Source: Escherichia phage mEp515
Reading direction: 5' to 3' (one strand)
Sequence record: PP180003
Length of the DNA stretch: 53,673 nucleotides
Shown here piece by piece: positions 6,082 through 46,544 of this stretch; the first letter of the stretch is position 1; every line of letters begins with the position of its first letter. A program made the translations under genes and the position numbers. The notes beneath the pieces were generated by a model. It had not been told where the DNA came from. It ran no database searches and saw only the letters and a list, made by a program, of their open reading frames with translations.

Positions 6082-6588
6082 TCAGGGTAAAGAAATACCG
6101 TGATTGCTATGAAAGTTATACATTCTTTCAGCTTCTTTTCTTGCTTTTACGGCATCATCAAATGAGTCACCGTAATAAACGTACATTGTTTTCTTTTTCC
6201 CATCAGACCCCCTTATACCTATTTGCGCCCGCCATTTATGGGTTTTCTTGTTCCACGTAACGCCAACGCATCCGCTAGTATTACTTGATGGCATTGTTTT
6301 GTTTCTGTTATTCTCCTTCCTTGTCACTATCCTTAAGTTTTCGATTCTATCGTCACCAGGTACATGATTTATGTGATCTATTTCCATTCCATCAGGAATA
6401 GGGCCGTTAAACATTTCCCAGATAATGCGGTGACGCCATGTGCAACAAATACCATTAACGCGTATAGTCCAATATCCGCGATAATGTTTACATCCAGCCA
6501 CGCTACCTGCTTTTATTTTGTTATTTGCACGGTTACAAGACCAATATAGAACGCCGTCGCTATATGTAAATAAATCATCCCACATCAT
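6082..6588 (-). CDS. HNH homing endonuclease with AP2-like DNA-binding domain (copy 1 of 4)
   Basis: RIIWEMFNGPIPDGMEIDHINH...NRIENLRIVTRKENN HNH motif then AP2-like C-terminus; start set at internal Met matching paralog N-termini (MMWDDLFTYSDG); ORF-track extension to 6690 overlaps upstream gene. Confidence 0.75.
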   Translation of the reverse strand: MMWDDLFTYSDGVLYWSCNRANNKIKAGSVAGCKHYRGYWTIRVNGICCTWRHRIIWEMFNGPIPDGMEIDHINHVPGDDRIENLRIVTRKENNRNKTMPSSNTSGCVGVTWNKKTHKWRAQIGIRGSDGKKKTMYVYYGDSFDDAVKARKEAERMYNFHSNHGISLP

Positions 6589-7705
6589 GACACCCAACCA
6601 TTTCAGGCCTATATACAAAGCGACCAATTTCGCCATAATCAGGGCTGTAAATGATAACCGCCGCGCAACGTTGCGATCTCCAGCCTCCATTAGTTGAATA
6701 AGCGTCTTTTCCCGCTAACGTGCCGTGGTGTTCAACTATGCCTATAGATGATTCTGTTACTGATTTATGGTGCAAATGTCCGACATGGACGTAAACATAT
6801 TTCGACTTGCCAAAATCCTCACGCCAGTCAGCTACGCAAGCAGACAATAAATTTTCAGGCTTTTTGATAGTGTGCCCGTGGTGGTAAGCAAGGAATGTTT
6901 TTCCGTACTGTGTGTGGTGGACGATGGCAGGGGACACATCAACCGTCACGCGCGGTTCATCTTCGTAAAAAGCCGCCAGCGCCGCACGTAGCCAGATCAT
7001 TCCTGACTGGTCGTGATTGCCGGATAACACCTGGATTTCAACATCCTTATGATTTAATAACATCTTCCCTACCGCCCGCCGGACAGACCGGATCGCTACA
7101 TAAACAAGTTTTGCGTAGCGACTATCTTGATCAAGAATGTGCCCGCTTGTTGGTGTCACCGGGACCATACCGTCAGAATGAAGTAGATCGCCACCGAGGA
7201 GCAGTACTGCTTTTTCAGACATAGGAGCAGCGCCAACCGCGTAGTCAAAGAAGTCATTCAACACGCGCTCAGCGATCCCAGTATCGTAGCTCTCACCGCA
7301 TTCAGCTTTATGAGCAAGTGCCCCGATATGCAGGTCAAACACCGGATAAAGAGCCAGGCTTTTTTGAAAATCAATTTCCGGCACTGGCACAGCCTCCGCG
7401 CGTGGTATTTCATCCGTGAAAGCGTCGCGGGCCGCTTCCATTAACTGTTCCATTTCGTCGCGGTCACGGGCTGTTTTAATCCAGCGCATGATCACATTGC
7501 CATCCTTATCGACTAGCAACGACTCGCCATTAACACCAAAACCAGGAGCGCGGCGCGTTGATAATAAACCGCGTTTTGCCAGTTTTGCTCCCAGGCGTTC
7601 GACATTGCGTTTAGACATGCCGTACTTTTCAGCGATCTGTTTGTACGTTAATCCGTTGTTATATTCAGCGATCAATTGCTCATCACTGATTTTTCTTTGC
7701 GACAT
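6575..7705 (-). CDS. HTH domain fused to calcineurin-like metallophosphoesterase
   Basis: N-terminal HTH (LTYKQIAEKYGMSKRNVERLGAKLAKRGLL); phosphoesterase motifs DLHIG, GDLLHSDG, GNHD, GHLHH; ATG at 7705 preceded by GGAGGG. Confidence 0.6.
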   Translation of the reverse strand: MSQRKISDEQLIAEYNNGLTYKQIAEKYGMSKRNVERLGAKLAKRGLLSTRRAPGFGVNGESLLVDKDGNVIMRWIKTARDRDEMEQLMEAARDAFTDEIPRAEAVPVPEIDFQKSLALYPVFDLHIGALAHKAECGESYDTGIAERVLNDFFDYAVGAAPMSEKAVLLLGGDLLHSDGMVPVTPTSGHILDQDSRYAKLVYVAIRSVRRAVGKMLLNHKDVEIQVLSGNHDQSGMIWLRAALAAFYEDEPRVTVDVSPAIVHHTQYGKTFLAYHHGHTIKKPENLLSACVADWREDFGKSKYVYVHVGHLHHKSVTESSIGIVEHHGTLAGKDAYSTNGGWRSQRCAAVIIYSPDYGEIGRFVYRPEMVGCHDVG

Positions 7706-7738
7706 AATGTTAATCCCTCCAGTCAACAAAATGTATAC

Positions 7739-8482
7739 CTACTTACACGCGAAAAGTTCAGACACCCAAAGTTGACCCTTAGCAGTAAATAGTGATTGGA
7801 CGTAACCTTCAGTCGAACATTTTACCACTCCATAGCCTTTGTCTACGAACCACTGTTTGAACATACGCCCGCCTCGCTTAATTCGCGTATCGTACACGTC
7901 AACCTGTTCAAGTTTTTTGTTGAGTTGCGTAGCAGTCATACCCAAAGGCTTGGCAACCTGTGTAGCGTTGCGATGCTGTTCGTTTTTTGCAATAGCATTA
8001 TAAACAGCCGCTTTCGGTGCTAATTCCTTATTTTCCAGCGCCAGACGATCAACTTCTTTCTGTGCTAATAGTTTTTGCTCTACCTCATCAGCCCATGCGC
8101 GAGCCGCCGCCACCGGATCAGTGAAATCCGGCAAAGCTGGTCTAAAACCGTAATGTCCATTTTCACGCAAAGCAGGGAGAACATCCTCGCACACCCAATC
8201 CTGGAAGCGCTCAGCTAATTCTACTTTTGATCGCATCACCAGACGGTAAACATCTGATTCATGAATTAGCGTTACGCCTTGCGGAATTGGTTCAAAACCC
8301 AAACGCCCCATTTCAGGGCATTTAATTTTAATCAATGACTTACAGTGTTCCCTTATAGCGTTTTGCGGCTTTGCGTACCCAAGCGCCCGCGCCACATCCA
8401 TTGCAACAAAAGCAGGTTTACCATCATAAATTACAGCAGTGATTTTATTGTCATCAAAATTAAAGCACATCAACTCAGACAT
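7739..8482 (-). CDS. Phage antirepressor (Bro-N domain plus KilA-C-like domain)
   Basis: N-terminus MSELMCFNFDDNKITAVIYDGKPAFVAMDVARALGY is Bro-N-like; start at internal ATG 8482 with GGAG SD. Confidence 0.7.
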   Translation of the reverse strand: MSELMCFNFDDNKITAVIYDGKPAFVAMDVARALGYAKPQNAIREHCKSLIKIKCPEMGRLGFEPIPQGVTLIHESDVYRLVMRSKVELAERFQDWVCEDVLPALRENGHYGFRPALPDFTDPVAAARAWADEVEQKLLAQKEVDRLALENKELAPKAAVYNAIAKNEQHRNATQVAKPLGMTATQLNKKLEQVDVYDTRIKRGGRMFKQWFVDKGYGVVKCSTEGYVQSLFTAKGQLWVSELFACK

Positions 8483-13138: not shown

Positions 13139-13663
13139 ATGAGTAATGCCGAACCATTGAAAATATGTTGTACTTGCGGGGCACTATTGCCCCTTTCTTG
13201 TTTTCATAACGATAAGGGCAAGAAAGACGGCAAATCATGTAGATGTAAAGAGTGCGCCAAAAAAGCCACTAGAGAATGGAGTGAAGCGAATAAAGAAAGA
13301 AAAAAGAAAAATGATAGCGAATACGCAAAAACAGATAAAGCCAAAAAGAAAAGGGAAGAATACAGAAAATCGCAAAGAGGTAAAGAGATCGCGGCTGAAT
13401 CAAGAAAAAAATGGAATGAGAAAAACCCTAAAAAATACCACGCCCAAGTGATGGCACATAACGCTATCCGCGACGGCAAATTAATTAAACAACCTTGCGA
13501 AGTATGCGGCAGAGATGACCGCGTACACGCGCACCATTGCGATTATGATAAGCCGCTCGATGTTATGTGGCTTTGCCCGATATGCCATCGAGAGTGGCAC
13601 AACGAACACGGTGAAGGAGCTAATGCACACGACGAGGTATTAAGTGGTGAGCGAATATCTTAA
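13139..13663 (+). CDS. HNH endonuclease-like zinc-finger protein with lysine-rich region
   Basis: C-terminal CEVCGRDDRVHAHHCDYDKPLDVMWLCPICHREWH is an HNH signature; N-terminal CxxC pair. Confidence 0.5.
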   Translation: MSNAEPLKICCTCGALLPLSCFHNDKGKKDGKSCRCKECAKKATREWSEANKERKKKNDSEYAKTDKAKKKREEYRKSQRGKEIAAESRKKWNEKNPKKYHAQVMAHNAIRDGKLIKQPCEVCGRDDRVHAHHCDYDKPLDVMWLCPICHREWHNEHGEGANAHDEVLSGERIS

Positions 13664-19709: not shown

Positions 19710-19723
19710 TCGGGGTGGTTTTT

Positions 19724-28161: not shown

Positions 28162-28239
28162 AATCTGACTCACAATCCCCCACAAGTTTTTCTATTTTTC
28201 GCGTAGCAACGCGTAAACATGTATTCAGGAGTAAACATT

Positions 28240-30496: not shown

Positions 30497-30501
30497 TAAC
30501 C

Positions 30502-30999: not shown

Positions 31000-31000
31000 G

Positions 31001-32266: not shown

Positions 32267-32282
32267 TTAAAAGGGGATCACA

Positions 32283-32711
32283 ATGTTTCGTTTTCGTCGT
32301 GTAAATATTGATGGTAAATCTATTACCGAAACCTACGCCGCCGCCGCAGCGGTGAAGCCCGGTGAACTGGTTAAACGGGCGAACGGCAAATTCGCTAAAG
32401 TAGCACTTGCTGACGTTGGTAAGGAACAACTTTTCATCGTTAACCCGGCGTTCCATGAAGGCAAAACCATTGCTGATGAAATTGCTGAAGGTGAAACCGT
32501 TGTTGCTGATTATGTGGAGCAGGGTCGTGAGTTTGCTCTTCGTGTTCCTGCCGCAACATACAAAAAGGGGGCGGCTATCGCTTTCACGGCTACTGGCGTC
32601 AAGCTGTTTACCGAGCCGCTTGAGTCAGCACCCGCAGATCCGATTGTCGCATACTGCCAGGAAGACGTAACCCTGGAAGCGGAAGACTTCATTCGCGTTC
32701 GCGTAGCTTAA
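32283..32711 (+). CDS. Putative head decoration / structural protein (DUF2190-like)
   Basis: 142 aa directly upstream of major capsid gene. Confidence 0.45.
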   Translation: MFRFRRVNIDGKSITETYAAAAAVKPGELVKRANGKFAKVALADVGKEQLFIVNPAFHEGKTIADEIAEGETVVADYVEQGREFALRVPAATYKKGAAIAFTATGVKLFTEPLESAPADPIVAYCQEDVTLEAEDFIRVRVA

Positions 32712-32728
32712 TTTAAAAGGGGAAAAAC

Positions 32729-33778: not shown

Positions 33779-33797
33779 TTTCCTTATTTCCTGTAAC

Positions 33798-33828
33798 TCC
33801 CCGGCGCGATGCCGGGGATTTTTTTTGT
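33798..33828 (+). terminator. Rho-independent terminator after capsid gene
   Basis: TCCCCGGC-GCGAT-GCCGGGGA hairpin plus TTTTTTTT. Confidence 0.75.
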
Positions 33829-33844
33829 ATGTGGAGCAAACAAA

Positions 33845-34231
33845 ATGGTCACTACAGAACAGGCGCGGGAATATCTTGAAAGCCAGGGTATTGACCTGCC
33901 AGACATTATCTTATCCTTGCTGGTGGAGCAGGCAAACAGCGTTAATGAATGCCTTGATGCCAACTATCCGGCCTCCACTGCAACATTGATTCAACTTTAT
34001 CTGATTGGCCTGTTAGGACTCACTCAGGCTAACAAGTACGTTTCCTCGCAAACTGGTCCGAACGGTGCAAGCCAGTCATACCGCTATGTCGATTTCAATA
34101 AAAAATGGAAGGCGGCCTGCTCGTTGCTTTACTCCCTTGATAAACATCACTGTACAGCCGAACTGATTCCACCAGATCCAGAAAACACCGCGCACGCTGG
34201 GCTTTGGATAGGTAAAAGCGGGAGGATGTAA
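33845..34231 (+). CDS. Putative head-tail connector / adaptor protein
   Basis: ATG with GGAG SD; position in head-tail joining block. Confidence 0.45.
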   Translation: MVTTEQAREYLESQGIDLPDIILSLLVEQANSVNECLDANYPASTATLIQLYLIGLLGLTQANKYVSSQTGPNGASQSYRYVDFNKKWKAACSLLYSLDKHHCTAELIPPDPENTAHAGLWIGKSGRM

Positions 34232-34233
34232 CA

Positions 34234-34419
34234 ATGTGGAACGACCTGACATTACCGGATCCGCTATTGCCGAAGCTGTTTACCCGCGTGTGGGTGAAGA
34301 CAGACACCGGGCGACAGGTGGCGGCCTATCTTAATGATGCTGGTGAATGGGTAATTCTGTGCCCGCGCGTGGCGAAAACCCATCCGAAAATTGTTAAATG
34401 GAGCTATGGCTATGAGTAA
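34234..34419 (+). CDS. Hypothetical head-tail joining protein (61 aa)
   Basis: ORF in structural block. Confidence 0.4.
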   Translation: MWNDLTLPDPLLPKLFTRVWVKTDTGRQVAAYLNDAGEWVILCPRVAKTHPKIVKWSYGYE

Positions 34420-34798
34420 GATCGCGAGATTCAGTTACAAGGCATTAGCCACCATTTACCCCGTAACGCGTGACGACTGGAATAATTCGAAGGTATACGG
34501 GCAACCTTACCTGATTGATTGCGCCTGGACGTCGACGGAAGGTAAAGACGAAGACGAGCGCGGGAGTGAAACCGATGTTAGTTACGTCATATTTACCGAA
34601 CTGCTTTACAACCTGCAACCAGTGGAGCGCCCCCGGAAAGGGTGGATGATTGCACCAGGTGACACCACGGCTTTTTCTGATCCGCTTGAAGCTGGCGCGA
34701 ATGAGATCTCCGGCGTGGTTGAATGGGATATGAGCATGTTTAACGACACACCGGATTATAAAATCATTACAGGTAACAGCGTGCGAAGTAAATATTAA
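34406..34798 (+). CDS. Putative head closure / connector protein
   Basis: ORF; start uncertain (34406-34415). Confidence 0.45.
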   Translation: MAMSKIARFSYKALATIYPVTRDDWNNSKVYGQPYLIDCAWTSTEGKDEDERGSETDVSYVIFTELLYNLQPVERPRKGWMIAPGDTTAFSDPLEAGANEISGVVEWDMSMFNDTPDYKIITGNSVRSKY

Positions 34799-34809
34799 AG
34801 GGGTTTTCT

Positions 34810-35250
34810 ATGCCTATTAAGGGTGTTAAACGCGTCAGGGAGCGATTGAAGCAGGAACTAAAGGAAATTACAGACAGAAAAACGCACGATGTATTATGGC
34901 GAGTGGGGCTTGTTGCTGGTGGATTCGCCGCAAATATGACGCCGATCGATACTGGTTTTTTAATTAACAGTCAATTCCAGTATATAGGTGACACTCCCGA
35001 GGGTATGCAATTACGTCTGGGTTACACCGCCCGCTACGCTGAATGGGTGCATGACATGCCAGGCACATTAAAAGGCCAGCCGCGCGAACATTTCGGTAAA
35101 ACAAGAGAAGGCGTCGAATTTGGCGGCGGTACTGGTAAGGGTGATTACTGGGATCCAAACGCGGAACCGGAATTTTTGCGCAAAGCATTCGAAGAACCAG
35201 ATAACGCCGACGATATTTATAAAACGATTATAGAAGGTTACAAAACATGA
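34810..35250 (+). CDS. Putative tail completion / head-tail joining protein
   Basis: 146 aa; position. Confidence 0.45.
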   Translation: MPIKGVKRVRERLKQELKEITDRKTHDVLWRVGLVAGGFAANMTPIDTGFLINSQFQYIGDTPEGMQLRLGYTARYAEWVHDMPGTLKGQPREHFGKTREGVEFGGGTGKGDYWDPNAEPEFLRKAFEEPDNADDIYKTIIEGYKT

Positions 35251-35633
35251 AACGCAGCGAGGTTTACGACGAAATAAGGGATTGGATTAAATCCCACGGG
35301 TACGACGAAGGTTATATTTTGCAGGCCCGTTTCTGGAATGAGCGATCCAATTCGAATAACAGCAGATATATTGTCATACAGCAAAACGGCGGAGCGGCGG
35401 GAGAAGAGGCGATAACCCGCGACTATTTCCGCATCCTGGTTATTTCGGCGCGTAATGACGCAAATATCAGTGAAGTGGAAGATCTCGCCGATGCAATACG
35501 GCAAAGTATGATAACAGAGTATAAAACTGATAAAATTACATACATGAAGCCAGTAGGCGCTATTCCTGCAATGCAGACAAGAGAAGGGCGCTTTATTTTT
35601 ACCGTAGCTTTTCAAACTACCATATCAAGATAA
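35247..35633 (+). CDS. Putative tail terminator / tail component
   Basis: 128 aa; position before major tail protein. Confidence 0.45.
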   Translation: MKRSEVYDEIRDWIKSHGYDEGYILQARFWNERSNSNNSRYIVIQQNGGAAGEEAITRDYFRILVISARNDANISEVEDLADAIRQSMITEYKTDKITYMKPVGAIPAMQTREGRFIFTVAFQTTISR

Positions 35634-35646
35634 GAGGTAATAAGAC

Positions 35647-36123
35647 ATGTCTGAGACTTGCAAAAATGGCTCATTTACAGGCCGTGACGTTGCTGTATTC
35701 TTTGCTATCGCTTGCCCTAACGCCAAACCGGAAACTGGAGCGTACAAGGCGTTAGGCATGATGCGCGGCAAAACACTTTCCGTAGAATGGGAAACCGCAG
35801 ACGCCACCGCTGATAAATCCGCCGACTATACCAAAGAATCCCTGGTCACTTACAAATCTGTTTCTTTCTCCGGCGACGGCGTATCACGTAGTGATGCTCT
35901 ACACAACCAGAAAGAACTAAAGCGGCATGTAATGTCACCGGGCACTGCTACCGGAAATCAGCCGTACGTGTGGCTAAAAATCGTCACCCCCACCGATGTG
36001 ACTGAGGGTCCATTCCTTTGCACATCTTTCGAAGAAGAAGCGCCGCACGATGATGTGACAACCTGGTCCATTGAGTGCGAAAGCGCGGGCCAGGTAACTG
36101 TAACCGATCCAGTTGTCGCATAA
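35647..36123 (+). CDS. Putative major tail tube protein
   Basis: 158 aa; AAGAGGT SD; followed by terminator then chaperone and tape measure. Confidence 0.5.
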   Translation: MSETCKNGSFTGRDVAVFFAIACPNAKPETGAYKALGMMRGKTLSVEWETADATADKSADYTKESLVTYKSVSFSGDGVSRSDALHNQKELKRHVMSPGTATGNQPYVWLKIVTPTDVTEGPFLCTSFEEEAPHDDVTTWSIECESAGQVTVTDPVVA

Positions 36124-36129
36124 ACAATA

Positions 36130-36156
36130 AAGGGGCTATTTAGCCCCTTCCTTTTA
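36130..36156 (+). terminator. Rho-independent terminator after major tail gene
   Basis: AAGGGGCT-ATTT-AGCCCCTT hairpin plus CCTTTT. Confidence 0.6.
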
Positions 36157-36167
36157 GGGTGAATACT

Positions 36168-36848
36168 ATGATCCATGTTCGTACAGGACAATTTGCGGCT
36201 GTGGTGAACGGTAAGCGCTATAAATTTAACCCGTGTTTCGCTGCGATGGCTAAAATCGGTAATGACAGGGAGCTTGTGGAATGTTTCGCAACCATCCACG
36301 GTAGCAAATACCCTTCACGATTACCTACAGATCCAGACCTCCGCAATCGCATTATGGCGCGGTGTTATGGTGAGATAGTACAAACGTCAATGCGCATCCT
36401 GAAATGTTGCTCAGACGACGAAACAGGCCCGTTATTAGGCGAATGCTGGTTCACTCCTTCGGGTAAATTGAGATTAAAACCGGGAATAATGCCAGTTGAT
36501 GATGTTATCACGCTGGCGCAACACTGCATGTACCACGGTTTAATTGGTGACGGCCCTGAAGAGGTCGCAAGCGATAGACGGGAAGGTGAATACAAACCAA
36601 CGTTCGACATACTGGAGTTTGTTTATTCTGCCGTTGCTCACCTGGGGTTATCAGAATCAGAAGCGTGGAATATGACAATGACCGGATATAGGGCCGCTGT
36701 GCGTGCTAAAACGCCGTCAGAAGCAAGAAACAAACAAAAACGACCAGATGTATTACTGGATAAAAAGGCTTATGACGATGGAATGAGGGAGGCTATGGAG
36801 ATATTAAAAAGAATGGAAAATAGCGAGCAAGAAAAAGCCCGGGATTAG
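36168..36848 (+). CDS. Putative tail assembly chaperone
   Basis: Position immediately upstream of tape measure; no frameshift site identified. Confidence 0.4.
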   Translation: MIHVRTGQFAAVVNGKRYKFNPCFAAMAKIGNDRELVECFATIHGSKYPSRLPTDPDLRNRIMARCYGEIVQTSMRILKCCSDDETGPLLGECWFTPSGKLRLKPGIMPVDDVITLAQHCMYHGLIGDGPEEVASDRREGEYKPTFDILEFVYSAVAHLGLSESEAWNMTMTGYRAAVRAKTPSEARNKQKRPDVLLDKKAYDDGMREAMEILKRMENSEQEKARD

Positions 36849-36869
36849 CCGGGCCTCTAAAATTCTGTG

Positions 36870-37229
36870 TTAGTTGAAATACGCATCAACTCTGTGGGCC
36901 ACGTTTACACCATAAGACTCGCCATCCTTAAACGCATTTAGTGACGCTTTATTATTTTTTGCCGCCTCTTTTAATCCATTGTACTTGCTATTAAGATCTT
37001 TCCATTCAGCGGTTTTTTCTAATACTGGCTTCATTGCGTAATGAATACAGCCAACGTTAAATGGCATTTCCAGATCACCATTACCGTCACCATGCTTTAT
37101 ATCGTACAACTGAGCATTATGCGCACATTCACGAAGTATGTATTTTGCAGACGGAGAGTGCTCAGCATTAGCATTAAGCGCAACCCCTGCAAGTACCGCC
37201 ACGATTAAGATTTTTGCCAGACTTTTCAT
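36870..37229 (-). CDS. Secreted/periplasmic protein of unknown function (opposite-strand moron in tail operon)
   Basis: 119 aa; signal peptide MKSLAKILIVAVLAGVALNANA with AxA cleavage site; two Cys in mature part; minus-strand terminator hairpin at 36837-36856. Confidence 0.6.
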   Translation of the reverse strand: MKSLAKILIVAVLAGVALNANAEHSPSAKYILRECAHNAQLYDIKHGDGNGDLEMPFNVGCIHYAMKPVLEKTAEWKDLNSKYNGLKEAAKNNKASLNAFKDGESYGVNVAHRVDAYFN

Positions 37230-37241
37230 ATTTCACCCCGC

Positions 37242-37331
37242 TTAGTTTTTGTTTTTCAGTGCTTTTAACATTTCTTCGATGAAGTCAGCATAGCGCTCAT
37301 GTTCGCTGGGGTGGTAGTTTACGTTTTTCAT
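37242..37331 (-). CDS. Small ORF (29 aa) upstream of secreted moron
   Basis: AAGAGGA SD; MKNVNYHPSEHERYADFIEEMLKALKNKN. Confidence 0.3.
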   Translation of the reverse strand: MKNVNYHPSEHERYADFIEEMLKALKNKN

Positions 37332-37488
37332 TTTCTTATCCTCTTTTGCTTCCTCCGGTCAATCCGGTCTTTTAAATCCCTTTGCTCTATCCCTTTCCTT
37401 TATCTTCTTTATACAAAATGTACTCGTTGAAGTGAAGCCATTTTGTATAAAATAGAGACATAGATCACATTTTGTATGAGGTTAAATC
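37332..37488. promoter_or_regulatory. Divergent regulatory region with three TACAAAATGTA-family motifs and TAGATCACA
   Basis: Motif copies at 37412-37422 (perfect palindrome), 37439-37449, 37468-37477. Confidence 0.4.
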
Positions 37489-40400
37489 ATGTCAACAAAT
37501 TTAGGCACAATTTATTACGAGGTTGATGCAAAAACGGGTCAGCTTCTGACTGTTCAACGCGAGGTAGATCGCGCAACTGGCAAAATGGAAAAGGATTTGG
37601 AGCGCGTGGATAGTGCCGCTACCCAGGCAAGCAAGTCACTGTCAAAGCTATCCTCGATTGCCAGCGCCCTGGGTGCTGCAATGGCAGCGAAAAAAATCAT
37701 TGAGTATGCAAACGCCTGGCAGGAGGTGAATAACAGGCTAATCAATAGCGTTCGTGCTGGTGAATCACTGGCAGACGTTAATCAGCGTGTATTTCAGATC
37801 GCGCAAAATTCACGAAGCGACCTTGATGCTACAGCAGATCTTTACGGTAAATTAGAGCGCTCGACGCGCGACGCTGGTTTATCGACGAAAGCACTTGGTG
37901 ATATGGTTGAAACCATTAACAAAACATTCCGCATTTCTGGCGCTTCTGCCGCTGAAGCAGAAGGCGGGATCCGTCAGTTGGGTCAATCCCTCGCCAAAGG
38001 TGTTTTGAATGGCGATGAATTTAACTCCGTTACAGAAAACGCCACCAGGCTGTCAGAGGGTTTGGCTAAATCACTGGGCGTATCGTCAGCAGAAATGCGC
38101 AAGATGGCAGCAGAAGGGAAAATCACCCGTGAAGCTATCATTAAAGCCCTTAAGGAAATGAAGGCGGAGGTTGATGCTGAGTTTTCTAAACTCACCCCAA
38201 CTATGCAGGAGGCTTTCACTGTTGCAGGCAACAACGCAGCTAAATTTTTCGGCAGCAATTCGTCAATTATGGGCGGGATTGGTGCTTTTAATTCGGCAGT
38301 TGTAACCCTGTCAGAAAACCTTAACGAAATAGCTACTGCATTTATTGGCCTTGCCACTGTGATGGGTGGCAGAGTGGTAAATAAATTCGTAGCTGCAACA
38401 GCAGAGGCATTAACTAACGCTCAGGCAACCAGGGCACAAACGGCAGCGGCACGGCAGGCCGCTCAGAGTGAATTGGCGCTAGCTAACGCTCAGGTGGTAT
38501 CAGCACGGCAATCAGCAGCGGCGGCGGCGGCAAGGCTGAGAGAGGCGCAGGCTTATGCTGCGGCAAATGCCGGAACAAAATTCGAAGTTCAGACGCTGAA
38601 AGAACTGGCTGTAGCCAAAGCACAGAACACAGCGGCATCAAACTCCCTTACTGCGGCAGAGCAGCGCCTTGCTGCGGCCCACACTGCGGCGGCAGCTAAT
38701 GCAGGACTACTAAAAACAGCATTTAGCGCTACTTTAGGCGCAATAGGCGGTATACCCGGCGCGTTAATGCTTGCTGTTTACGGATTGACATCATATGTAG
38801 ATCACGTAGATCAAACGGCAGAGGCAAATCGCAACCTTGCCGATTCAGTGGACGTTAGCACCGAATCACTGGAGCGAATGAGTAAGGCGGCTAAACTGGC
38901 TGGCGCAGATAAGCTACAAATATCAATGGGTCAGTTAGAGGAAGACATTGCCAGTCTTAACAAACAGATTGACCAGGACACACAGGCGCTAGAACTGAAT
39001 AAACAGGCACTGGAGAAAGCAGAGGAGGGGTCACGCGCTTACGCTAATCTATCGAAAGCTAATCAGGAAATAACGGCCCGTCTAACCAGGGAAGAAGCGC
39101 AGCGTGAAGATATTCTCGACCGCCTTAATCAAATGCAGCGCAAATATATTTTGCTTATGCAGGATACAGATCCTCTAATGAAGACCCTTGCCACTTCGTT
39201 GGGGTTGGTAGCAGACGCATACGGAAGAATCACCACAGAAGCAGAACGCGCAGCAGCAGCAACGCAACACGCTTCAGCAGCGCTTAACGCAGATCAACAA
39301 GAACTAATGAATCTGGCAAACCGCCGCCTGGAGCTGGCAAAACTCGACTCCAAAACAGCCAGCAGGGAAAAGGCGATTGATGGGTTTAAGCGTGAGGCTG
39401 AGAAAGCAAACCTGACCGGGGAAGCGTATGAAAAATACATGGCTACAATGACCAAAGCGTACGACACCGAGCAGAAACGCGCCGAAGCTGAAAGAAAGGC
39501 CAGTCATGGGAAAAAAACTGGCGAAAGCGAGGAGAAAAAACATCTAAAAGAGGCTGAACGCCTGCGCAAAGAGCTTGAGAAGCGGGGCCAGAATGTTGCA
39601 GACAAATACAACGTAGAAGCCGCAGCACAACGGAAATTAAAAGAGGATCAGGATGCGCTAAACGCCGCACTTAAAAGCGGGAAAATAAGCGCGGAACAAT
39701 ACAATAAGGCATGGAAAGAATTAATTGGAACCGAGGAACAACGCAAACGTCAGGCTGGTTGGGATAATCTGGTAAACAATGAGCTACAACTACGCGGGCA
39801 ACTAGACCCAATTCAGCAGGCGATGAATGAATGGGCGGTTCGCAAGCAGATGCTCACAGATTTAGGCGCTACAGAGCAATATATGAGGGAGCAAGAAAAA
39901 GCGCATGAGAGGGAAATGCTATCACTTCAGTGGGAGAGGTATAAGGCGCAGTCATTGACCAACCAACTGTTAGGCGATGCTGTTGATGCAATGAGCGGAT
40001 CTGCAACTAACGCGCTTGTCGGCCTGATTAACGGTACTCAAAATTGGCAACAGGCGATCGCTAACATTGGCAATACAATCCTTTCCTCCGTGATTGGTAC
40101 GATTGTTCAAATGGGTACTGAGTGGGTCAAGCAGCAATTGATTGGTGATACAGCAAGAACTATGGCAACAACCAAAGCACTGGCAGAGGCGGCAGCGTTA
40201 TCATCAGCGTGGGCTACCCCTGCATACCTGGCAAACGTTGCCACGATGGGCGGCGCTGGGGCCACTGGACTTACTGGGCTTACTACTGGCGTCGCTGCCG
40301 CCAAAACGCTTGGACTGGCTGGCGCTCGTTATAACGGCGGTGCGGTTAACGGTGGTAGCCTGTATCGCGTAGGGGAACACGGTAAGCCAGAGATCTTCCA

Positions 40401-40644
40401 ATCTCGAAACGGTGAACAGTATATGATTCCTGGTGACAACGGCAGGGTAATACCAAATCGCGACATTGGTGGTGCGGGTGGTGGTAACGTTAGTATAAAC
40501 GCACCGATTAGTGTTTACCCACAAAATGGATGGAGTGATGAGGACGCCAAAAAACTACAGCAGGATATGGAAAAGATCTGCATGGGCCTGATACACCGCG
40601 AATCATCCAGACCGGGCGGAATGCTGCAACCGCGCCGCAAATAA
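37489..40644 (+). CDS. Tail tape measure protein
   Basis: 1051 aa; long coiled-coil/Ala-rich protein with Gly-rich C-terminus. Confidence 0.85.
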   Translation: MSTNLGTIYYEVDAKTGQLLTVQREVDRATGKMEKDLERVDSAATQASKSLSKLSSIASALGAAMAAKKIIEYANAWQEVNNRLINSVRAGESLADVNQRVFQIAQNSRSDLDATADLYGKLERSTRDAGLSTKALGDMVETINKTFRISGASAAEAEGGIRQLGQSLAKGVLNGDEFNSVTENATRLSEGLAKSLGVSSAEMRKMAAEGKITREAIIKALKEMKAEVDAEFSKLTPTMQEAFTVAGNNAAKFFGSNSSIMGGIGAFNSAVVTLSENLNEIATAFIGLATVMGGRVVNKFVAATAEALTNAQATRAQTAAARQAAQSELALANAQVVSARQSAAAAAARLREAQAYAAANAGTKFEVQTLKELAVAKAQNTAASNSLTAAEQRLAAAHTAAAANAGLLKTAFSATLGAIGGIPGALMLAVYGLTSYVDHVDQTAEANRNLADSVDVSTESLERMSKAAKLAGADKLQISMGQLEEDIASLNKQIDQDTQALELNKQALEKAEEGSRAYANLSKANQEITARLTREEAQREDILDRLNQMQRKYILLMQDTDPLMKTLATSLGLVADAYGRITTEAERAAAATQHASAALNADQQELMNLANRRLELAKLDSKTASREKAIDGFKREAEKANLTGEAYEKYMATMTKAYDTEQKRAEAERKASHGKKTGESEEKKHLKEAERLRKELEKRGQNVADKYNVEAAAQRKLKEDQDALNAALKSGKISAEQYNKAWKELIGTEEQRKRQAGWDNLVNNELQLRGQLDPIQQAMNEWAVRKQMLTDLGATEQYMREQEKAHEREMLSLQWERYKAQSLTNQLLGDAVDAMSGSATNALVGLINGTQNWQQAIANIGNTILSSVIGTIVQMGTEWVKQQLIGDTARTMATTKALAEAAALSSAWATPAYLANVATMGGAGATGLTGLTTGVAAAKTLGLAGARYNGGAVNGGSLYRVGEHGKPEIFQSRNGEQYMIPGDNGRVIPNRDIGGAGGGNVSINAPISVYPQNGWSDEDAKKLQQDMEKICMGLIHRESSRPGGMLQPRRK

Positions 40645-40648
40645 TCAA

Positions 40649-40680
40649 AACCCCGGCGCAATGCCGGGGTTATTTTTATT
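40649..40680 (+). terminator. Rho-independent terminator after tape measure gene
   Basis: AACCCCGGC-GCAAT-GCCGGGGTT hairpin plus ATTTTTATT; near-identical stem to terminator at 33798. Confidence 0.75.
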
Positions 40681-40855
40681 CAATTTCATCATTTTTAAAT
40701 TCGCCGTTTGCATAAAGCTGTAATGCTCTTATCAGTTCGTCAGCTTGCTTTTTGTCTATTACAATCATCTCGCAGTCGCTAACGATCCATAATCTTCCGT
40801 CATCTTCAATACTAAGATCAATCCTTCTACATTCTTCAGTATCATGAATAATCAT
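40676..40855 (-). CDS. Small ORF (59 aa, acidic)
   Basis: Not in ORF track; weak SD. Confidence 0.25.
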   Translation of the reverse strand: MIIHDTEECRRIDLSIEDDGRLWIVSDCEMIVIDKKQADELIRALQLYANGEFKNDEIE

Positions 40856-40893
40856 TATAAACCTTCATCATGTTATTGATTTCGTGAATAAAT

Positions 40894-41064
40894 TTACTCA
40901 AATCTTGTATATCCTCTCTCAATTTTCCCTCCGTGTACACTTCTGGCAAATACCGCGTCAGTATACCTAAAAAATGGGCATGTATATGTATCCCCTTTAC
41001 TATCCATATATTTTAGCACCCATGCTATGCGTTTTACGTTGCTTTTATTTGCCGGATTTTTCAT
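40894..41064 (-). CDS. Hypothetical small protein (56 aa)
   Basis: Internal ATG with GGAGG SD. Confidence 0.35.
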   Translation of the reverse strand: MKNPANKSNVKRIAWVLKYMDSKGDTYTCPFFRYTDAVFARSVHGGKIERGYTRFE

Positions 41065-41327
41065 TTTATTTTTCCTCCGCAAATCACAACCTGCCGTTTC
41101 TTGCTATGTAGCTGCGAGCAAACATCACCTGCCAGATGTTCCAAATCTCACGCCACGTAAATTTATCATCTTCCATATCTCACCCCGTCGCGCTTGTATG
41201 GTTCGCCATCAGCAAACGGGATTAACTCATCGTTTGCCACCATTCGATTAAACCAGTCTTTAAGAATAACCAGGGAGAACCGGATCCCGTAACTGTGCAA
41301 TTCGCGCCACCTCATTTATGTGCCACC

Positions 41328-41834
41328 CTATTTACCGTGATTTGGATGAAAACCGTATTTAATTTCGGCTTCTTGCCTTGCCTTGATTGCATCATCTTTG
41401 CTTTTGAATACCCCTAAATGTTTTAATTTTCCGTTGATTCTGATAACTGCGCACCATTTACGCAATCTTTCAAGCCAATAAACACCAGCACAGCCGGATT
41501 TATTATTATGGTTGCGACTTCTGTTGTGGTTATTGTCTTTGCAGGTAACTAGCCGCAAATTTTCTATATGGTTGTTTACCTTATTGTGATCGATATGATC
41601 TATTTCCATTCCTTCCGGGATTGGTCCGTTGTGCATTTCCCATATAATTCTATGCTCTTGGTATATCCTCCTGTTAAACCCTACATGTATATACCCACTT
41701 CGTTTATGAAGGCACCCGGCTCGCTTTCCCGCATATCTTGAATTCCAGGTTTTGGAAACGCCATTTCTTGGCTTCCATAATATAGCGCCGTCACTGTATA
41801 TAAAATAATCATTCCAGTTAATTACTTGTGACAT
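41328..41834 (-). CDS. HNH homing endonuclease with AP2-like domain (copy 3 of 4)
   Basis: HRIIWEMHNGPIPEGMEIDHIDHNKVNNHIENLRLVTCKDNN plus AP2-like C-terminus. Confidence 0.8.
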   Translation of the reverse strand: MSQVINWNDYFIYSDGAILWKPRNGVSKTWNSRYAGKRAGCLHKRSGYIHVGFNRRIYQEHRIIWEMHNGPIPEGMEIDHIDHNKVNNHIENLRLVTCKDNNHNRSRNHNNKSGCAGVYWLERLRKWCAVIRINGKLKHLGVFKSKDDAIKARQEAEIKYGFHPNHGK

Positions 41835-42076
41835 CCGCGCACCCCTGACAATTCATTAAATTTGTGATGCTCGACGATTACCCATGCTTTCAAGTCCTGG
41901 CTATAAACACGCCAATCTAAATTGGCGCGGAAGGCGTAGCCGTAGCCGTCCTTTAATTTTTTGGGTGCAACATCCTTGTTTAAAAACGCGTTCAGAAGTG
42001 CTTTTGCTTTTTTGATTACGTGTCCAGGTGCGTTTTTCTGTGCTTTCAGGTTTTTACCAATCGCCACCAATTTCAT
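41822..42076 (-). CDS. Hypothetical basic protein (84 aa)
   Basis: Lys-rich; start MKLVAIGKNLK. Confidence 0.45.
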   Translation of the reverse strand: MKLVAIGKNLKAQKNAPGHVIKKAKALLNAFLNKDVAPKKLKDGYGYAFRANLDWRVYSQDLKAWVIVEHHKFNELSGVRGCHK

Positions 42077-42093
42077 AACACACCCCACAATCC

Positions 42094-42249
42094 ATTAGCT
42101 GACCACTTTCAGGAAGAAATCACGGTACTCATTTTCCTTCGCATTCATCATGAATTGACCGTATTTGAATGCGTCATCAAAGCCTTTAACTATCGCCACT
42201 TCCACCTGTTCGAATGCGTTGTTCAGCATTACCACTACATAACGCTTCA
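42094..42249 (-). CDS. Hypothetical small protein (51 aa)
   Basis: Not in ORF track; AAGGGGG SD. Confidence 0.35.
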
Positions 42250-42419
42250 TGTTGGCCCCCTTTGTCGGTACTGCTTTTTCTTCTTGCTTACTATATACAT
42301 CTTGTCACGCCTTATGTGAAGCCATTTTGTAAACTGGTTATAATTCTTGTGATGAATTTCTCATTTTTCGCGTAGAAGCGCGTAAAGATGTATGCAATAT
42401 GTAACTTATAGGGGGAATC

Positions 42420-42773
42420 ATGCCAGAAGTTTTCAGATGGACGCCGCAAAGAAGCTACAGCGTGACCAGGGAACCAAATGTGTCTGTCATTAAACTTGGT
42501 GATGGGTATGAACAGCGCCAGGCGAAAGGGATTAACACATTGCTTGACAGCTACACCCTGGTCTTTAAAGGCAGTAGCGCAGGATGCGGTGATGGTGGGA
42601 ACGTGGCGATCCAGGCAGAAGCATTCTTGAGGGCGCGCGGCGCTGTCGATGCTTTCTACTGGACGCCTTCGATGGATGGGGTGCAAAGGCTTTTCGTTTG
42701 CCGTAGCTGGAGCATGACCAAAGACGGGCCTGTGTACACGCTAAACGCAACGTTTGAACAAGTTGTTGGCTAA
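42420..42773 (+). CDS. Minor tail protein M (lambda gpM-like)
   Basis: 117 aa; FRWTP...GDGYEQRQ...FYWTP...ATFEQVVG matches lambda gpM landmarks as I recall them. Confidence 0.85.
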   Translation: MPEVFRWTPQRSYSVTREPNVSVIKLGDGYEQRQAKGINTLLDSYTLVFKGSSAGCGDGGNVAIQAEAFLRARGAVDAFYWTPSMDGVQRLFVCRSWSMTKDGPVYTLNATFEQVVG

Positions 42774-42784
42774 TGGGGGTTGTT

Positions 42785-42970
42785 ATGTACGGGACTTGTG
42801 TAGTTGACAAAACTTACGCTTTTACATTGTTTGACGACTATGAGATCAACGACCTTACTGTAAAGGCTGACAATGGCGATACATGGTATCTTCATGATGT
42901 TGGTGATGGTTATGTGGGATGCAGATCCAGAGAAGGCAAGGAGGTTTTATTTTTGGTTGATGGCGTATAA
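42785..42970 (+). CDS. Hypothetical small protein (61 aa)
   Basis: ATG with GGGGG SD. Confidence 0.35.
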   Translation: MYGTCVVDKTYAFTLFDDYEINDLTVKADNGDTWYLHDVGDGYVGCRSREGKEVLFLVDGV

Positions 42971-42974
42971 TAAC

Positions 42975-43000
42975 AACCCCGCTTCGCGCGGGGTTTTCTT
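42975..43000 (+). terminator. Rho-independent terminator
   Basis: AACCCCGC-TTCGC-GCGGGGTT hairpin plus TTTCTT. Confidence 0.7.
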
Positions 43001-43001
43001 G

Positions 43002-43139
43002 TCAGTAGTTAATGTGCATCAAACTCATTGGGTGAGCGTGCGCCATGTTGTTTGCTATTGCCGCCCAGTCCCAACCAGCAGCGTGAACACCAAATACGAT
43101 CAAGCCCATTATTATTAGCGCCAAAACTTCTATTTTCAT
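43002..43139 (-). CDS. Small membrane peptide (45 aa)
   Basis: AGGTGA SD; MKIEVLALIIMGLIVFGVHAAG TM segment. Confidence 0.3.
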   Translation of the reverse strand: MKIEVLALIIMGLIVFGVHAAGWDWAAIANNMAHAHPMSLMHINY

Positions 43140-43149
43140 AATCTGTCAC

Positions 43150-43398
43150 CTATAAGTTATCACGCAGATAATTAACGCCCTTATCAGTAACGAATGAATG
43201 GTTGACCTGGTTTTCATCCGTCATGATGATGAATAACTTTTCCTGTAGGTATTTCGCTTTCGGGTACAGTGTTAAACAGACCTGGTACAGTATCCCGCGC
43301 TCAATCAGCAAATGAATAAATTCGTGTTCATGATAACCGATAAGGCGGGCGGCCTGTTTCAACGTGTACACATAATCCCCGTGATTACGCCGCGCCAT
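43150..43398 (-). CDS. Small HTH DNA-binding protein (82 aa)
   Basis: HTH-like YTLKQAARLIGYHEHEFIHLLIERGIL. Confidence 0.5.
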   Translation of the reverse strand: MARRNHGDYVYTLKQAARLIGYHEHEFIHLLIERGILYQVCLTLYPKAKYLQEKLFIIMTDENQVNHSFVTDKGVNYLRDNL

Positions 43399-43407
43399 AC
43401 TCCCACC

Positions 43408-43758
43408 CTATTTATTGAACGCAGACAAATTGTCGATACAGAAATCTTTAGCCGCTTTTTCGTATTCACGTTTTGCTTCAGGATCGTCAGCCGGGAAACC
43501 TTTTGCGTGTATTTCGCCAGGGCAAGACTGATCCATAGAATCAGCAAATTCAACATTGACGTTAAAGTTAATATCTTTCGGGTTCATCTCTTCCACCTTA
43601 TCCGGTACTTGGACCGGAGTAATATCAAAATCACGATAGTTAAACCCACAGCGAAGTAATTCACGACCTTCATCACGCGCCGCAGCATATGTGTCAAATA
43701 GGCCCATGCGTTCCCATCCGCATTTATTGGTAAACACGTCTAAACTGTATTTTTGCAT
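43408..43758 (-). CDS. Hypothetical protein (116 aa)
   Basis: ORF; no motif recognised. Confidence 0.5.
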   Translation of the reverse strand: MQKYSLDVFTNKCGWERMGLFDTYAAARDEGRELLRCGFNYRDFDITPVQVPDKVEEMNPKDINFNVNVEFADSMDQSCPGEIHAKGFPADDPEAKREYEKAAKDFCIDNLSAFNK

Positions 43759-43770
43759 TTTGTTAACCTC

Positions 43771-44758: not shown

Positions 44759-44760
44759 TT

Positions 44761-45492: not shown

Positions 45493-45965
45493 ACGTTGAT
45501 ACGCCAGCGCAGGGACTTCGCTTATTGACCGCACAGAATCAGGAGTTCAAGAAGGCTTTTTTAAACACCCCATTGCGCTTGCGAATTGCCGGAAAAGATT
45601 ACGACGAAAAGACCGCACCCGCAGCGGTTAACAGTAAATACCAGGATGGTACTACCGTCATTGTTGCGCCAGTGGTGGAAGGCGGTATTGCAGGGATTGG
45701 CGTTGTAGGCTGGATTTTGATCGGTGTTTCGGTTGTTAGCGTTGCGTTCTCGATCTTCATGTCACGCAACATGAAGATAAAAACATCAGCAGAAAGCGCA
45801 CAAGATAACACCATATCTAACAACACATACACCAGCGTTGAAAACAAGGTTGGCCAGGGTAGACCAGTGCCGATCCTGTTGGGTGAAATGAAAATAGGTT
45901 CAAACGTCGGATCGTTAGGCATAGACACAAGTAATAACAAAGACGCCTTAGACGTTGTAAGTTAA
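45435..45965 (+). CDS. Tail assembly protein I (lambda gpI-like)
   Basis: 176 aa; internal hydrophobic segment; position between K and J. Confidence 0.75.
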   Translation: MLKFRFTGNLRRYYGKVCLNVDTPAQGLRLLTAQNQEFKKAFLNTPLRLRIAGKDYDEKTAPAAVNSKYQDGTTVIVAPVVEGGIAGIGVVGWILIGVSVVSVAFSIFMSRNMKIKTSAESAQDNTISNNTYTSVENKVGQGRPVPILLGEMKIGSNVGSLGIDTSNNKDALDVVS

Positions 45966-45977
45966 TAGGGGGTTACA

Positions 45978-46544
45978 GTGAACTGGTCTGAATTGTTTGT
46001 TTATGATGAAGATTCTCCTTCATGTTTAAGGTGGAAAGTCACCGCTAACAGCAGAACGGCGAGGACTGGCGATGCGGCAGGAAAAATAGTAGCGGCAAAA
46101 AGCGGCAATAAGTACTGGAAAATCACATGGAAGGGCCGTCGCTATTATGCTCACCGGATTGTTTACGAATTATGCAGTGGCAGAAAATTAAAACGCAGTG
46201 AGATCATCGATCACATTGATGGTAATGGGCTTAATAATAAATTCAATAACATACGCGTAACAGATAAAAAAGGTAACGCCAGAAATATGACCATAGGTCG
46301 CGCGACAAGGGAGAGCGGATTGCCATTTGGGATATGTTGGCACGCAGAAGGGAGATCTATTAGAGCACGTATCACCGCTGATAACGACAAAAGAGTTAGT
46401 AAATCATTTAGCGTTATAGCGTGCGGTGGACTTGAAATGGCTATTAATGCCGCCGTCGCGTGGCGGTCATTCATGATTGAAGAGCTAAATAAAGCTGGCG
46501 CAGGATACACGAAATTACACGAAACAGGGGGTTTATATGTCTAG
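45978..46544 (+). CDS. HNH homing endonuclease with AP2-like domain (copy 4 of 4)
   Basis: AHRIVYELCSGRKLKRSEIIDHIDGNGLNNKFNNIRV; GTG start with GGGGG SD; inserted between tail genes I and J. Confidence 0.75.
   Translation: MNWSELFVYDEDSPSCLRWKVTANSRTARTGDAAGKIVAAKSGNKYWKITWKGRRYYAHRIVYELCSGRKLKRSEIIDHIDGNGLNNKFNNIRVTDKKGNARNMTIGRATRESGLPFGICWHAEGRSIRARITADNDKRVSKSFSVIACGGLEMAINAAVAWRSFMIEELNKAGAGYTKLHETGGLYV

Follow-up and report, generated by a model that had tools for sequence, protein, structure and literature searches.

I-HmuI, the HNH (HNN) enzyme of Bacillus phage SPO1, is an intron-encoded, strand-specific nickase. Free-standing phage enzymes of the HNH-AP2 (HNN-AP2) kind have also been described (Magnani et al., 2004, as cited in PMC10448857 and PMC2248197), and 44-kb Xanthomonas phages carry 6–8 free-standing HNH genes each, with multiple dispersed HNN-AP2 genes and one zinc-type HNH gene per genome (PMC2248197). 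HNH-AP2 homing endonucleases are therefore a known kind of phage parasite and not a new system.

Here we examine Escherichia phage mEp515 (record PP180003; "the window" is the whole stretch analyzed, 53,673 nucleotides), a temperate phage of the mEp021 group (mEpimmI), which is a group of Nus-dependent coliphages with 48 published genomes. The words "HNH" and "homing" were not found in the paper describing that group (PMC11893012). Very probably, mEp515 carries five free-standing homing endonuclease genes, each an optional, selfish cassette of ~0.5 kb: four encode I-HmuI-like HNH_3 nucleases with an AP2-type domain, and one encodes a zinc-ribbon HNH protein (ZnHNH). Whereas I-HmuI is intron-encoded and has a different C-terminal DNA-binding module, the mEp515 genes are free-standing and the HNH_3 proteins end in an AP2-type domain. 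They share a two-domain architecture and several dispersed copies per genome with the HNH-AP2 genes of Xp10, OP1 and Xop411 and with the IPA-HNH genes of ICP1, although unlike the latter they score clearly on the standard HNH_3 profile; like HNH-AP2 phage genes, they have essential genes as neighbors and are present in some sister phages but not in others. Because multicopy free-standing HNH-AP2 genes are textbook phage parasites, the set is of little importance in itself; its practical value, discussed below, lies in the phages that carry it.

Five intact HNH genes

All five HNH ORFs were confirmed as full-length frames:

6082..6588, minus strand: HNH1, HNH_3 plus AP2-like, 168 aa, Pfam HNH_3 score 75.3 bits; neighbors are a metallophosphoesterase-like gene (6575-7729) and the replicative helicase gene (4632-6047)
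13139..13663, plus strand: ZnHNH, 174 aa, between the SSB gene and an anti-RecBCD gene
30502..30999, plus strand: HNH2, HNH_3 plus AP2, 165 aa, HNH_3 score 74.9 bits; neighbors are a MuF-like head morphogenesis gene (29552-30496) and a putative scaffold gene
41328..41834, minus strand: HNH3, HNH_3 plus AP2-like, 168 aa, HNH_3 score 70.6 bits; in an accessory island on the reverse strand, flanked by the tape-measure gene and a minor-tail gene
45978..46544, plus strand: HNH4, divergent HNH_3 plus AP2-like, 188 aa, GTG start, HNH_3 score 37.7 bits; neighbors are tail-assembly gene I (45435-45965) and host-specificity gene J (46537-50718)

A 202-aa reading of HNH1 (start 6690) was rejected: homology with relatives begins only with the Met codon at 6588/6585, and the added N-terminal stretch would run into the upstream gene.

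Domains and catalytic residues

The four HNH_3 (PF13392) matches lie above the gathering cut-off of 24.8 bits. Matches to the AP2/ERF profile (PF00847) are found in the same four ORFs, all below its gathering threshold of 33.3 bits (25.6 bits for HNH1; 18.7, 13.4 and 17.3 bits for the others), and a precomputed PF00847 match is present in many of their homologues. NCBIfam gave no meaningful match for any of the five proteins, and PADLOC gave only weak, generic matches to its homing-endonuclease model ("HEase"). Since a phmmer search of PDB sequences yielded no match for ZnHNH and only a marginal one, to I-HmuI, for HNH2 (E 0.07), a fold comparison was needed. In a high-confidence structure model of one HNH_3 protein, the nuclease part is predicted to resemble I-HmuI (beta-beta-alpha-metal fold), and the predicted C-terminus, a three-stranded sheet packed on a helix, can be superposed on solved plant AP2 domains.

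Alignment to I-HmuI (PDB 1U3E) shows that equivalents of its D74/H75, N87 and N96 are kept in HNH1–HNH4; a set of 55 homologues shows no variation at H76 and N97, and at least 90% of its members retain D75 and N88. Thus, when degenerate frames or lost catalytic residues were looked for, the frames proved intact and the His and Asn equivalents were present in all four. These findings bear on the idea that the genes are inactive relics, or AP2-type DNA-binding regulators domesticated without nuclease action. Degenerate HNH-AP2 remnants do occur among the Xanthomonas phage sets (PMC2248197), and the HNH_3 score of HNH4 is much lower than those of the others, yet every frame is full length, the catalytic Asp-His, Asn and Asn equivalents are retained, and dN/dS values of 0.08–0.26 for orthologue pairs of HNH1, HNH2 and HNH4 indicate purifying selection. 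We consider this explanation very unlikely.

ZnHNH has no Pfam match whatsoever and a weak match to phrog_1035, "endonuclease VII" (1.6e-10); T4 endonuclease VII-like proteins are grouped with the zinc-type HNH enzymes. Its N-terminal zinc ribbon (C10, C13, C36 and C39) is followed by a helical linker and then by a predicted C-terminal beta-beta-alpha-metal motif, in which 58 sequences all share C120, C123, H132, H133, C146, H150 and H154. The zinc-type HNH proteins that contain two CxxC dyads, namely Xanthomonas phage "group IV" and gp13 of lactophage bIL170 (PMC2248197), likewise have cysteine dyads on either side of the His and occur once per genome, always in the same place; ZnHNH differs from them in its extra N-terminal ribbon and long helical linker. 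The gene lacks annotation in the mEp021 record, and our assignment corrects the existing annotation.

Optional genes at mostly empty sites

We placed breakpoints by blastn and junction alignments against five sister phages (mEp021, mEp010, mEp554, mEp044 and MagusPhagus), a set without mEp013; MagusPhagus was covered from 4.4 kb onward, past its helicase site. Across six phages and ~35 E. coli prophages, all five genes are clean presence/absence polymorphisms with intact neighbors. HNH1 is 100% identical to mEp021_10 and 93% identical to mEp010_11, annotated "homing endonuclease", and is absent from mEp554 and mEp044. HNH4 is 100% identical in mEp021 and absent from mEp554, mEp010, mEp044 and MagusPhagus, and HNH3 is absent from all five sister phages. 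The plaque-forming isolate mEp044 has none of the five, so no HNH gene is essential; likewise, the optional presence of ZnHNH among sister phages implies that neither recombination nor packaging depends on it as a core enzyme.

In the prophages the sites are mostly empty: occupancy is 0/31 for HNH1 and 0/24 for HNH4 (counting prophages in which both flanks matched), 1/34 for HNH3, and 1/35 and ~1–2/35 for the remaining two. At ~0–3% per site, the elements are not sweeping through the group. When filled in diverged genomes, however, the same sites hold orthologues: HNH2 relatives lie at MuF/scaffold in three other genomes (L006, L007 and L008), ZnHNH relatives also follow SSB (L015 and L016), and HNH4 relatives (54–83% identity) are always at I/J in E. 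coli and Salmonella prophages (L009–L014). The HNH3 site is filled only in E21845, where the encoded protein is 52% identical and likewise starts with MSQ(V/I)INW; HNH3 may show similar site fidelity, on this single comparison.

At least 11 distinct HNH insertion sites were found across the mEpimmI group, and HNH1-like genes occur in 757 phage records, in up to four places per record among the matches listed. The earlier note had called the load in mEp515 unusually heavy; this does not hold, as the prophage in E. coli E21845/O/A has six HNH genes and the Xanthomonas phages match or exceed that number (PMC2248197). It had also described the AP2-HNH genes as four paralogs. They are indeed four HNH_3 homologues, but duplication within this genome is not borne out: pairwise identity is only 27–49%, and HNH1, HNH2 and HNH4 have closer relatives elsewhere, so they look like independent acquisitions.

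Insertion points and linked tracts

Empty and filled sites in related phages place each insert, as the note had proposed to do:

6091..6601, minus strand: HNH1 inserted segment, 511 bp (breakpoints against mEp554 and mEp044), with a 6-bp repeat, CCTGAA (minus strand), at its bounds
6614..6802, minus strand: HNH1-linked tract (~190 bp)
30517..31012, plus strand: HNH2 inserted segment, ~496 bp (junction alignments)
31009..31045, plus strand: HNH2-linked tract with carrier-exclusive alleles, 5′ end of the scaffold gene
~41325-41823: HNH3 inserted segment
45970-46541: HNH4 inserted segment, replacing 14–15 bp (J's ribosome-binding site and ATG) and supplying new ones

The neighbors are undisrupted, as the note had claimed, though the inserts replace terminal codons: they break into the start or end of adjoining coding sequences and supply replacement codons, ribosome-binding sites and start codons. 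The HNH1 insert enters the upstream gene four codons short of its stop, and the C-terminus encoded by that gene now reads ...MVGCHDVG* in place of ...FSIL*. At the HNH2 site, for which the empty allele of mEp021 or mEp044 is GTGAATAAAGAACTGATTCAGGTTAATACCAAATTAACCGCTAATACC, the scaffold gene's original ribosome-binding site, GTG and first codons now serve HNH2, and the 3′ end of the insert gives the scaffold gene a new ribosome-binding site (GGGAG) and an ATG, at 31001, which is probably its true start. The ATG of HNH3 overlaps the end of a ParE-like gene (41822-42088), and the I/J junction sequence for HNH4 is AGGAGAAAAGCCATGAGTAGCGGCGGCGGC. It is because each cassette gives the displaced gene its terminal codons, ribosome-binding site and start codon that such elements can persist in tightly packed operons.

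Two of the inserts adjoin short tracts of carrier-exclusive alleles. For HNH2, when four carriers were compared with 11 non-carriers, 274 flank sites were polymorphic; 11 of these had carrier-exclusive alleles, and every one lay at 31009-31044, the 36 bp adjoining the insert; four carriers against five non-carriers gave 12 fixed differences at 31009-31045, including four consecutive synonymous third-position changes. For HNH1 (three carrier genomes aligned with seven non-carriers), 26 of 28 carrier-exclusive sites fall in the ~190-bp tract, and none on the helicase side. Judged from these alignments, 31009-31045 is a candidate target or immunity tract for HNH2, or a minimal co-conversion tract. 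The carriers may share descent, in which case both linked tracts could reflect plain linkage and not immunity; polymorphisms just outside the tracts, which are common to carriers and non-carriers, count against this.

Proposed homing and its alternatives

The note had read the AP2-HNH genes as free-standing homing endonucleases, and the presence/absence polymorphism, intact frames, kept catalytic residues and purifying selection all point the same way. In the cycle we envisage, a carrier and a non-carrier phage would come together in the same cell, either through co-infection or because one of them is the resident prophage, and the enzyme would nick or cut the empty allele beside its own insertion point. 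Phage recombination functions (Erf, SSB, NinB, NinG and RusA) would then repair the break from the carrier genome, copying the HNH gene and, alongside it, a short stretch of flanking sequence with differences that would shield the carrier from its own enzyme.

The note had further suggested that one of these proteins doubles as the terminase-associated HNH of cos phages, acting in cos cleavage and packaging as HK97 gp74 does. That protein too belongs to the HNH superfamily and comes from a siphovirus, a related prophage (L008) has an HNH_3 gene between its small and large terminase genes, and Barth et al. note homing endonuclease genes near terminase genes too (PMC10448857). The mEp515 genes, however, are not beside the terminase: the coding regions for its small (26195-26680) and large (26677-28161) terminase subunits overlap, and no HNH gene separates or adjoins them. 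The packaging type also differs from that of HK97, the small terminase being Sf6-like (PF20901, 127.5 bits), which we take to be the headful type, and MuF is present. Moreover, the HNH genes are dispensable in relatives: mEp044 forms plaques with the same packaging module and none of the five, and the terminase-adjacent gene of L008 is itself optional, being absent from mEp515, mEp021 and L007. A packaging role is thus extremely improbable.

A different possibility is a role in competition among phages, as weapons or exclusion factors: produced in the course of infection, or by the prophage, the enzymes would cut the genomes of related non-carrier phages, and homing would be a by-product. HNH3 would be the prime case: it lies next to the ParE-like gene, and a bidirectional terminator (40649-40671) marks the edge of their reverse-strand island. 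This proposal is compatible with all of the data, including the weak "HEase" matches and the purifying selection on measurable orthologue pairs. Against it, a promoter scan of the HNH3 island was at chance level (six found versus 5.5 expected), and the rarity of the genes in prophages argues against a strong benefit to host or prophage; we regard it as unlikely. Also unlikely, and speculative, is a broader version in which the mEpimmI gut coliphages host a diversified HNH swarm that may both initiate module exchange and arm related temperate phages and prophages against one another, and in which HNH3 might be an exclusion nuclease in a possibly lysogeny-expressed island. If so, the 36-bp scaffold tract, with its two haplotypes, would be a natural target/immunity pair.

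For the favored homing interpretation, the group offers culturable, closely related temperate E. coli K-12 phages with 0, 1, 1, 3 and 5 HNH genes. Together with exact insertion points, ~35 prophages with mostly empty sites and one predicted 36-bp target/immunity tract, these make homing easily testable, and the temperate system is suited to tests of flanking-marker conversion and inter-phage competition.

Mosaic origin of the set

Most of the genome is ~99–100% identical to mEp021 outside one block, mapped by identity in 500-bp windows and by mismatches:

26886..43530, no strand: block divergent from mEp021, ~16.6 kb, from the large terminase gene to the tail island

HNH2 and HNH3 lie inside this block, and HNH1, ZnHNH and HNH4 in the backbone common to mEp021. 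The total of five is therefore a product of mosaicism, three genes having come with the mEp021-like backbone and two with the structural block. HNH2 at first seemed to mark a recombination boundary, as identity to mEp021 by megablast appeared to drop from 98% to 90% at 30518; the windows and mismatch map place the real boundaries at ~26.9 kb, which falls within the large terminase gene, and at ~43.5 kb, and since no HNH gene lies on either, this idea was rejected. We also considered a hidden in-frame element in the tape-measure gene, which encodes 1051 aa here versus 781 aa in mEp021. Blastp revealed nothing nuclease-like and identified the gene as a divergent allele whose two ends show 31–44% identity and whose middle is longer and has no match.

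The five HNH genes and their two kinds

All five HNH ORFs of mEp515 are present and intact, four of them combining HNH_3 and AP2-like regions and one of a zinc type:

6082..6588 (-): HNH1, HNH_3 plus AP2-like
30502..30999 (+): HNH2, HNH_3 plus AP2-like
41328..41834 (-): HNH3, HNH_3 plus AP2-like
45978..46544 (+): HNH4, HNH_3 plus AP2-like
13139..13663 (+): ZnHNH, zinc ribbon plus HNH motifs

HNH1–HNH4 each score above the Pfam threshold for HNH_3, and all are assigned to phrog_99. Over their C-terminal 70-90 residues the sole Pfam match is AP2 (13-26 bits, below the gathering score of 33.3), save for a negligible 12-bit match on HNH1. The earlier note had named frameshifts and loss of catalytic residues as grounds for doubt: the frames are intact, and I-HmuI residues D74/H75, N87 and N96 have counterparts in all four proteins. 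Across the aligned family, H76 and N97 do not vary, and conservation of D75 and N88 reaches ≥90%. The four had also been called paralogs. They are indeed of the same HNH_3/AP2 kind, but they share only 27-49% pairwise identity and three have closer relatives elsewhere: HNH1 shares 62-65% identity with lytic-coliphage genes (for example in ACG-M12 and AKS96), HNH2 59% with the NinG|RusA gene of the E. coli E21845/O/A prophage, and HNH4 92% with a metagenomic protein.

ZnHNH matches nothing in Pfam or NCBIfam and falls in phrog_2340 ("endonuclease"). Across 58 homologues, C36 and C39 of the zinc ribbon are invariant and C10 and C13 conserved at ≥90%, and the pattern C120-x2-C123...H132-H133...C146...H150...H154 is invariant. 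A database search returned 171 related protein clusters; nearly all of the 120 listed (P0092-P0211) lack a Pfam domain, and where NCBI gives a name it is "hypothetical". These relatives look like a widespread phage nuclease family that lacks a curated profile. NinG (19595-20329, Pfam-confirmed) occurs in each of the five sister phages examined and is outside the selfish HNH set.

Optional presence among relatives

PP180003 is a phage genome record in prophage gene order rather than a prophage integrated in a bacterial chromosome. It belongs to mEpimmI, a group of Nus-dependent temperate coliphages described in PMC11893012, where six of them were sequenced; according to that study, mEp515 and mEp021 share OmpA as receptor and the lipoprotein Lpp021. 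That paper does not discuss the HNH genes, some of which are labeled "HNH endonuclease" or "homing endonuclease" in the mEp021 and mEp010 records. mEp021 (MH706966) is collinear with mEp515 from base 1 (98.4% identity in the left-hand 25 kb and 94.3% in the right-hand 25 kb), and mEp554, mEp010, mEp044, mEp013 and MagusPhagus are remoter matches. We searched the sister genomes for each gene by tblastn and blastn.

Carriage of the HNH genes in mEp515 and sister phages (amino acid identity in parentheses)
HNH1: carried by mEp515, mEp021 (100%), mEp010 (93%); absent from mEp554, mEp044
ZnHNH: carried by mEp515, mEp021 (100%), mEp554 (61%); absent from mEp010, mEp044, MagusPhagus
HNH2: carried by mEp515 only; absent from all five sister phages
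HNH3: carried by mEp515 only; absent from all five sister phages
HNH4: carried by mEp515, mEp021 (100%); absent from mEp554, mEp010, mEp044, MagusPhagus

Because mEp044, a plaque-forming isolate, has none of the five, none of them is essential. The mEp021 copy of ZnHNH (MH706966 13839-14360) is unannotated in GenBank, where the record leaves a gap between the SSB and anti-RecBCD genes.

About 35 of 5,426 complete E. coli genomes contain a prophage of the mEp021 group, and five insertion-site searches found no complete E. coli genome matching mEp515 above ~95%. Where both flanks matched, the helicase (HNH1) site was occupied in 0 of 31 prophages and the I|J (HNH4) site in 0 of 24. The MuF|scaffold (HNH2) site was occupied in one of 35 (33 clearly empty), the tail-island (HNH3) site in one of 34, and the SSB (ZnHNH) site in ~1-2 of 35.

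Anatomy of the insertions

The earlier note placed the four AP2-HNH genes in intergenic slots that leave their neighbors undisturbed. The neighbors do stay intact, but the cassettes are not simply intergenic: they replace terminal codons and starts. The HNH1 insert (6091-6601), bordered by a 6-bp repeat, enters a metallophosphoesterase-like gene four codons ahead of its stop and supplies a new eight-codon tail. The HNH2 insert (30517-31012) splits off roughly the first five codons of the putative scaffold gene, and that gene's ribosome-binding site and GTG become the start of HNH2; translation of the scaffold gene is maintained by a new GGGAG ribosome-binding site and an ATG (31001) at the 3′ end of the insert. 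The HNH4 insert (45970-46541) swaps out 14-15 bp holding the ribosome-binding site and ATG of J and brings new ones, and J still begins MSSGGGK. The HNH3 insert (~41325-41823, minus strand) places the HNH3 start codon within the final codons of a ParE-like gene, and ZnHNH is accompanied by an alternative SSB C-terminus. Such replacement codons and signals are how a selfish cassette can fit harmlessly into a tightly coupled operon.

Site fidelity, selection and linked alleles

Orthologues of HNH2 (76-90% amino acid identity) occupy MuF|scaffold in three other genomes, and those of HNH4 (54-83%) always lie between I and J, including in Salmonella enterica prophages whose tail module is lambda-like. 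ZnHNH relatives (53-61%) follow SSB in other group members; one in the 154-kb Citrobacter phage Tr1 has an unrelated context. dN/dS values (HNH1, 0.08; HNH2, 0.13-0.26; HNH4, 0.17) indicate purifying selection.

At the HNH2 site, we compared the flanks of four carriers with those of eleven non-carriers (274 polymorphic sites). All 11 carrier-exclusive alleles fall within 31009-31044, on the immediate 3′ side of the insert; a smaller set gave 12 fixed differences at 31009-31045. Within the tract, four codons in a row (Q-V-N-T) differ synonymously at the third position, and polymorphisms just beyond it are common to carriers and non-carriers. In genomes with an empty site the tract is a candidate recognition region of the enzyme, with the carrier version as the matching immune allele; at the least, it may be the minimal co-converted tract. 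The HNH1 tract is one-sided too (26 of 28 carrier-exclusive sites within 6614-6802), and at HNH4 the co-segregating changes are confined to the first codons of J.

The comparison with relatives that the earlier note had suggested yielded precise empty and filled sites. Site fidelity, purifying selection and linked flanking alleles are evidence that these genes act, or did until recently, as site-specific mobile elements. Together with their identity, fold, intact catalytic residues and optional presence, this bears out the description of free-standing homing endonucleases, and we consider it very probable that these are five independent genes of that type. The HNH enzyme would nick or cut the empty allele close to the junction (I-HmuI, a relative with a single active site, is a nickase), and phage Erf, SSB, NinB, NinG and RusA would mend the break with the carrier genome as template. 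The data are also compatible with HNH genes that serve competition between related phages or act as a prophage-expressed exclusion nuclease, although we regard this as unlikely. As homing endonuclease genes, the set would not surprise a specialist, but it is a natural system, well defined and easy to work with, in which to test homing in temperate coliphages.

Origin of the HNH load

mEp515 is almost identical to mEp021 at ~11.6-26.9 kb and ~43.5-49.5 kb, whereas the 16.6-kb block 26886-43530, from the large terminase to the tail island, is 5-25% divergent or unalignable, which points to a recent modular recombinant. Outside that block, identity to mEp021 is ~99-100% for most of the genome. 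The shared backbone carries HNH1, ZnHNH and HNH4, each 100% identical to its mEp021 copy, and the foreign block carries HNH2 and HNH3. The load therefore adds up from two mosaic parts and did not expand within one genome.

Nor is that load unusually heavy, as had been supposed. The E21845/O/A prophage (NZ_CP076272 ~1476745-1531696), a member of the group, has six such genes at sites that differ in part from those of mEp515: five HNH_3 genes (before erf, methylase region, NinG|RusA, MuF|scaffold, tail island) and an unannotated zinc-type gene in the erf-ssb gap (L023 14399-14914). Published Xanthomonas phages of 44 kb carry 6-8 free-standing HNH genes, one of zinc type and the others dispersed genes of HNN-AP2 type (PMC2248197), and the literature already documents phage lineages rich in homing endonuclease genes that lie next to essential genes (PMC10448857). 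Genes resembling HNH1 are found in 757 phage records, and the records listed have them in as many as four places. A further prophage (L008, in E. coli GCA_048049915) has HNH_3 genes at MuF|scaffold and at two sites empty in mEp515, between lysozyme and an Rz-like lysis gene (2385-2909) and between the small and large terminase genes (5683-6186), and the mEp021 group as a whole has at least 11 distinct HNH sites.

The L008 terminase-adjacent gene is optional. The earlier note had proposed that one mEp515 HNH protein may double as the terminase-associated HNH of cos phages, which we find highly improbable. A small terminase that scores 127.5 bits against the Sf6 family, a large terminase bearing a Terminase_6C nuclease domain and a MuF protein encoded after the portal gene together form a set typical of headful packaging rather than of cos phages. 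No HNH gene lies beside the terminase genes in mEp515, and relatives without any HNH are viable.

Other features of the genome

Smaller patches at ~7.7-11.5 kb, including the repressor region, also diverge from mEp021. Judged from the annotation of their mEp021 counterparts, three genes encode DNA methyltransferases:

2838-3569 (-): N4/N6
17105-17644 (+): Dam-like
18615-19373 (+): Dcm-like

The tape-measure protein (37489-40644) has 1051 residues, compared with 781-782 in mEp021 and mEp554. Its ends are just 31-44% identical to theirs, ~350 central residues have no counterpart, and no nuclease-like insert was seen in it; its length predicts a longer tail. Between the tape-measure and minor-tail genes is a reverse-strand accessory island that includes the ParE-like toxin gene (41822-42088, minus strand; the RefSeq name of its homologues, with PF24732 in related contigs). 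Directly after the tape-measure gene, a strong bidirectional terminator-like hairpin with a 10-bp GC-rich stem (40649-40671) closes the island.
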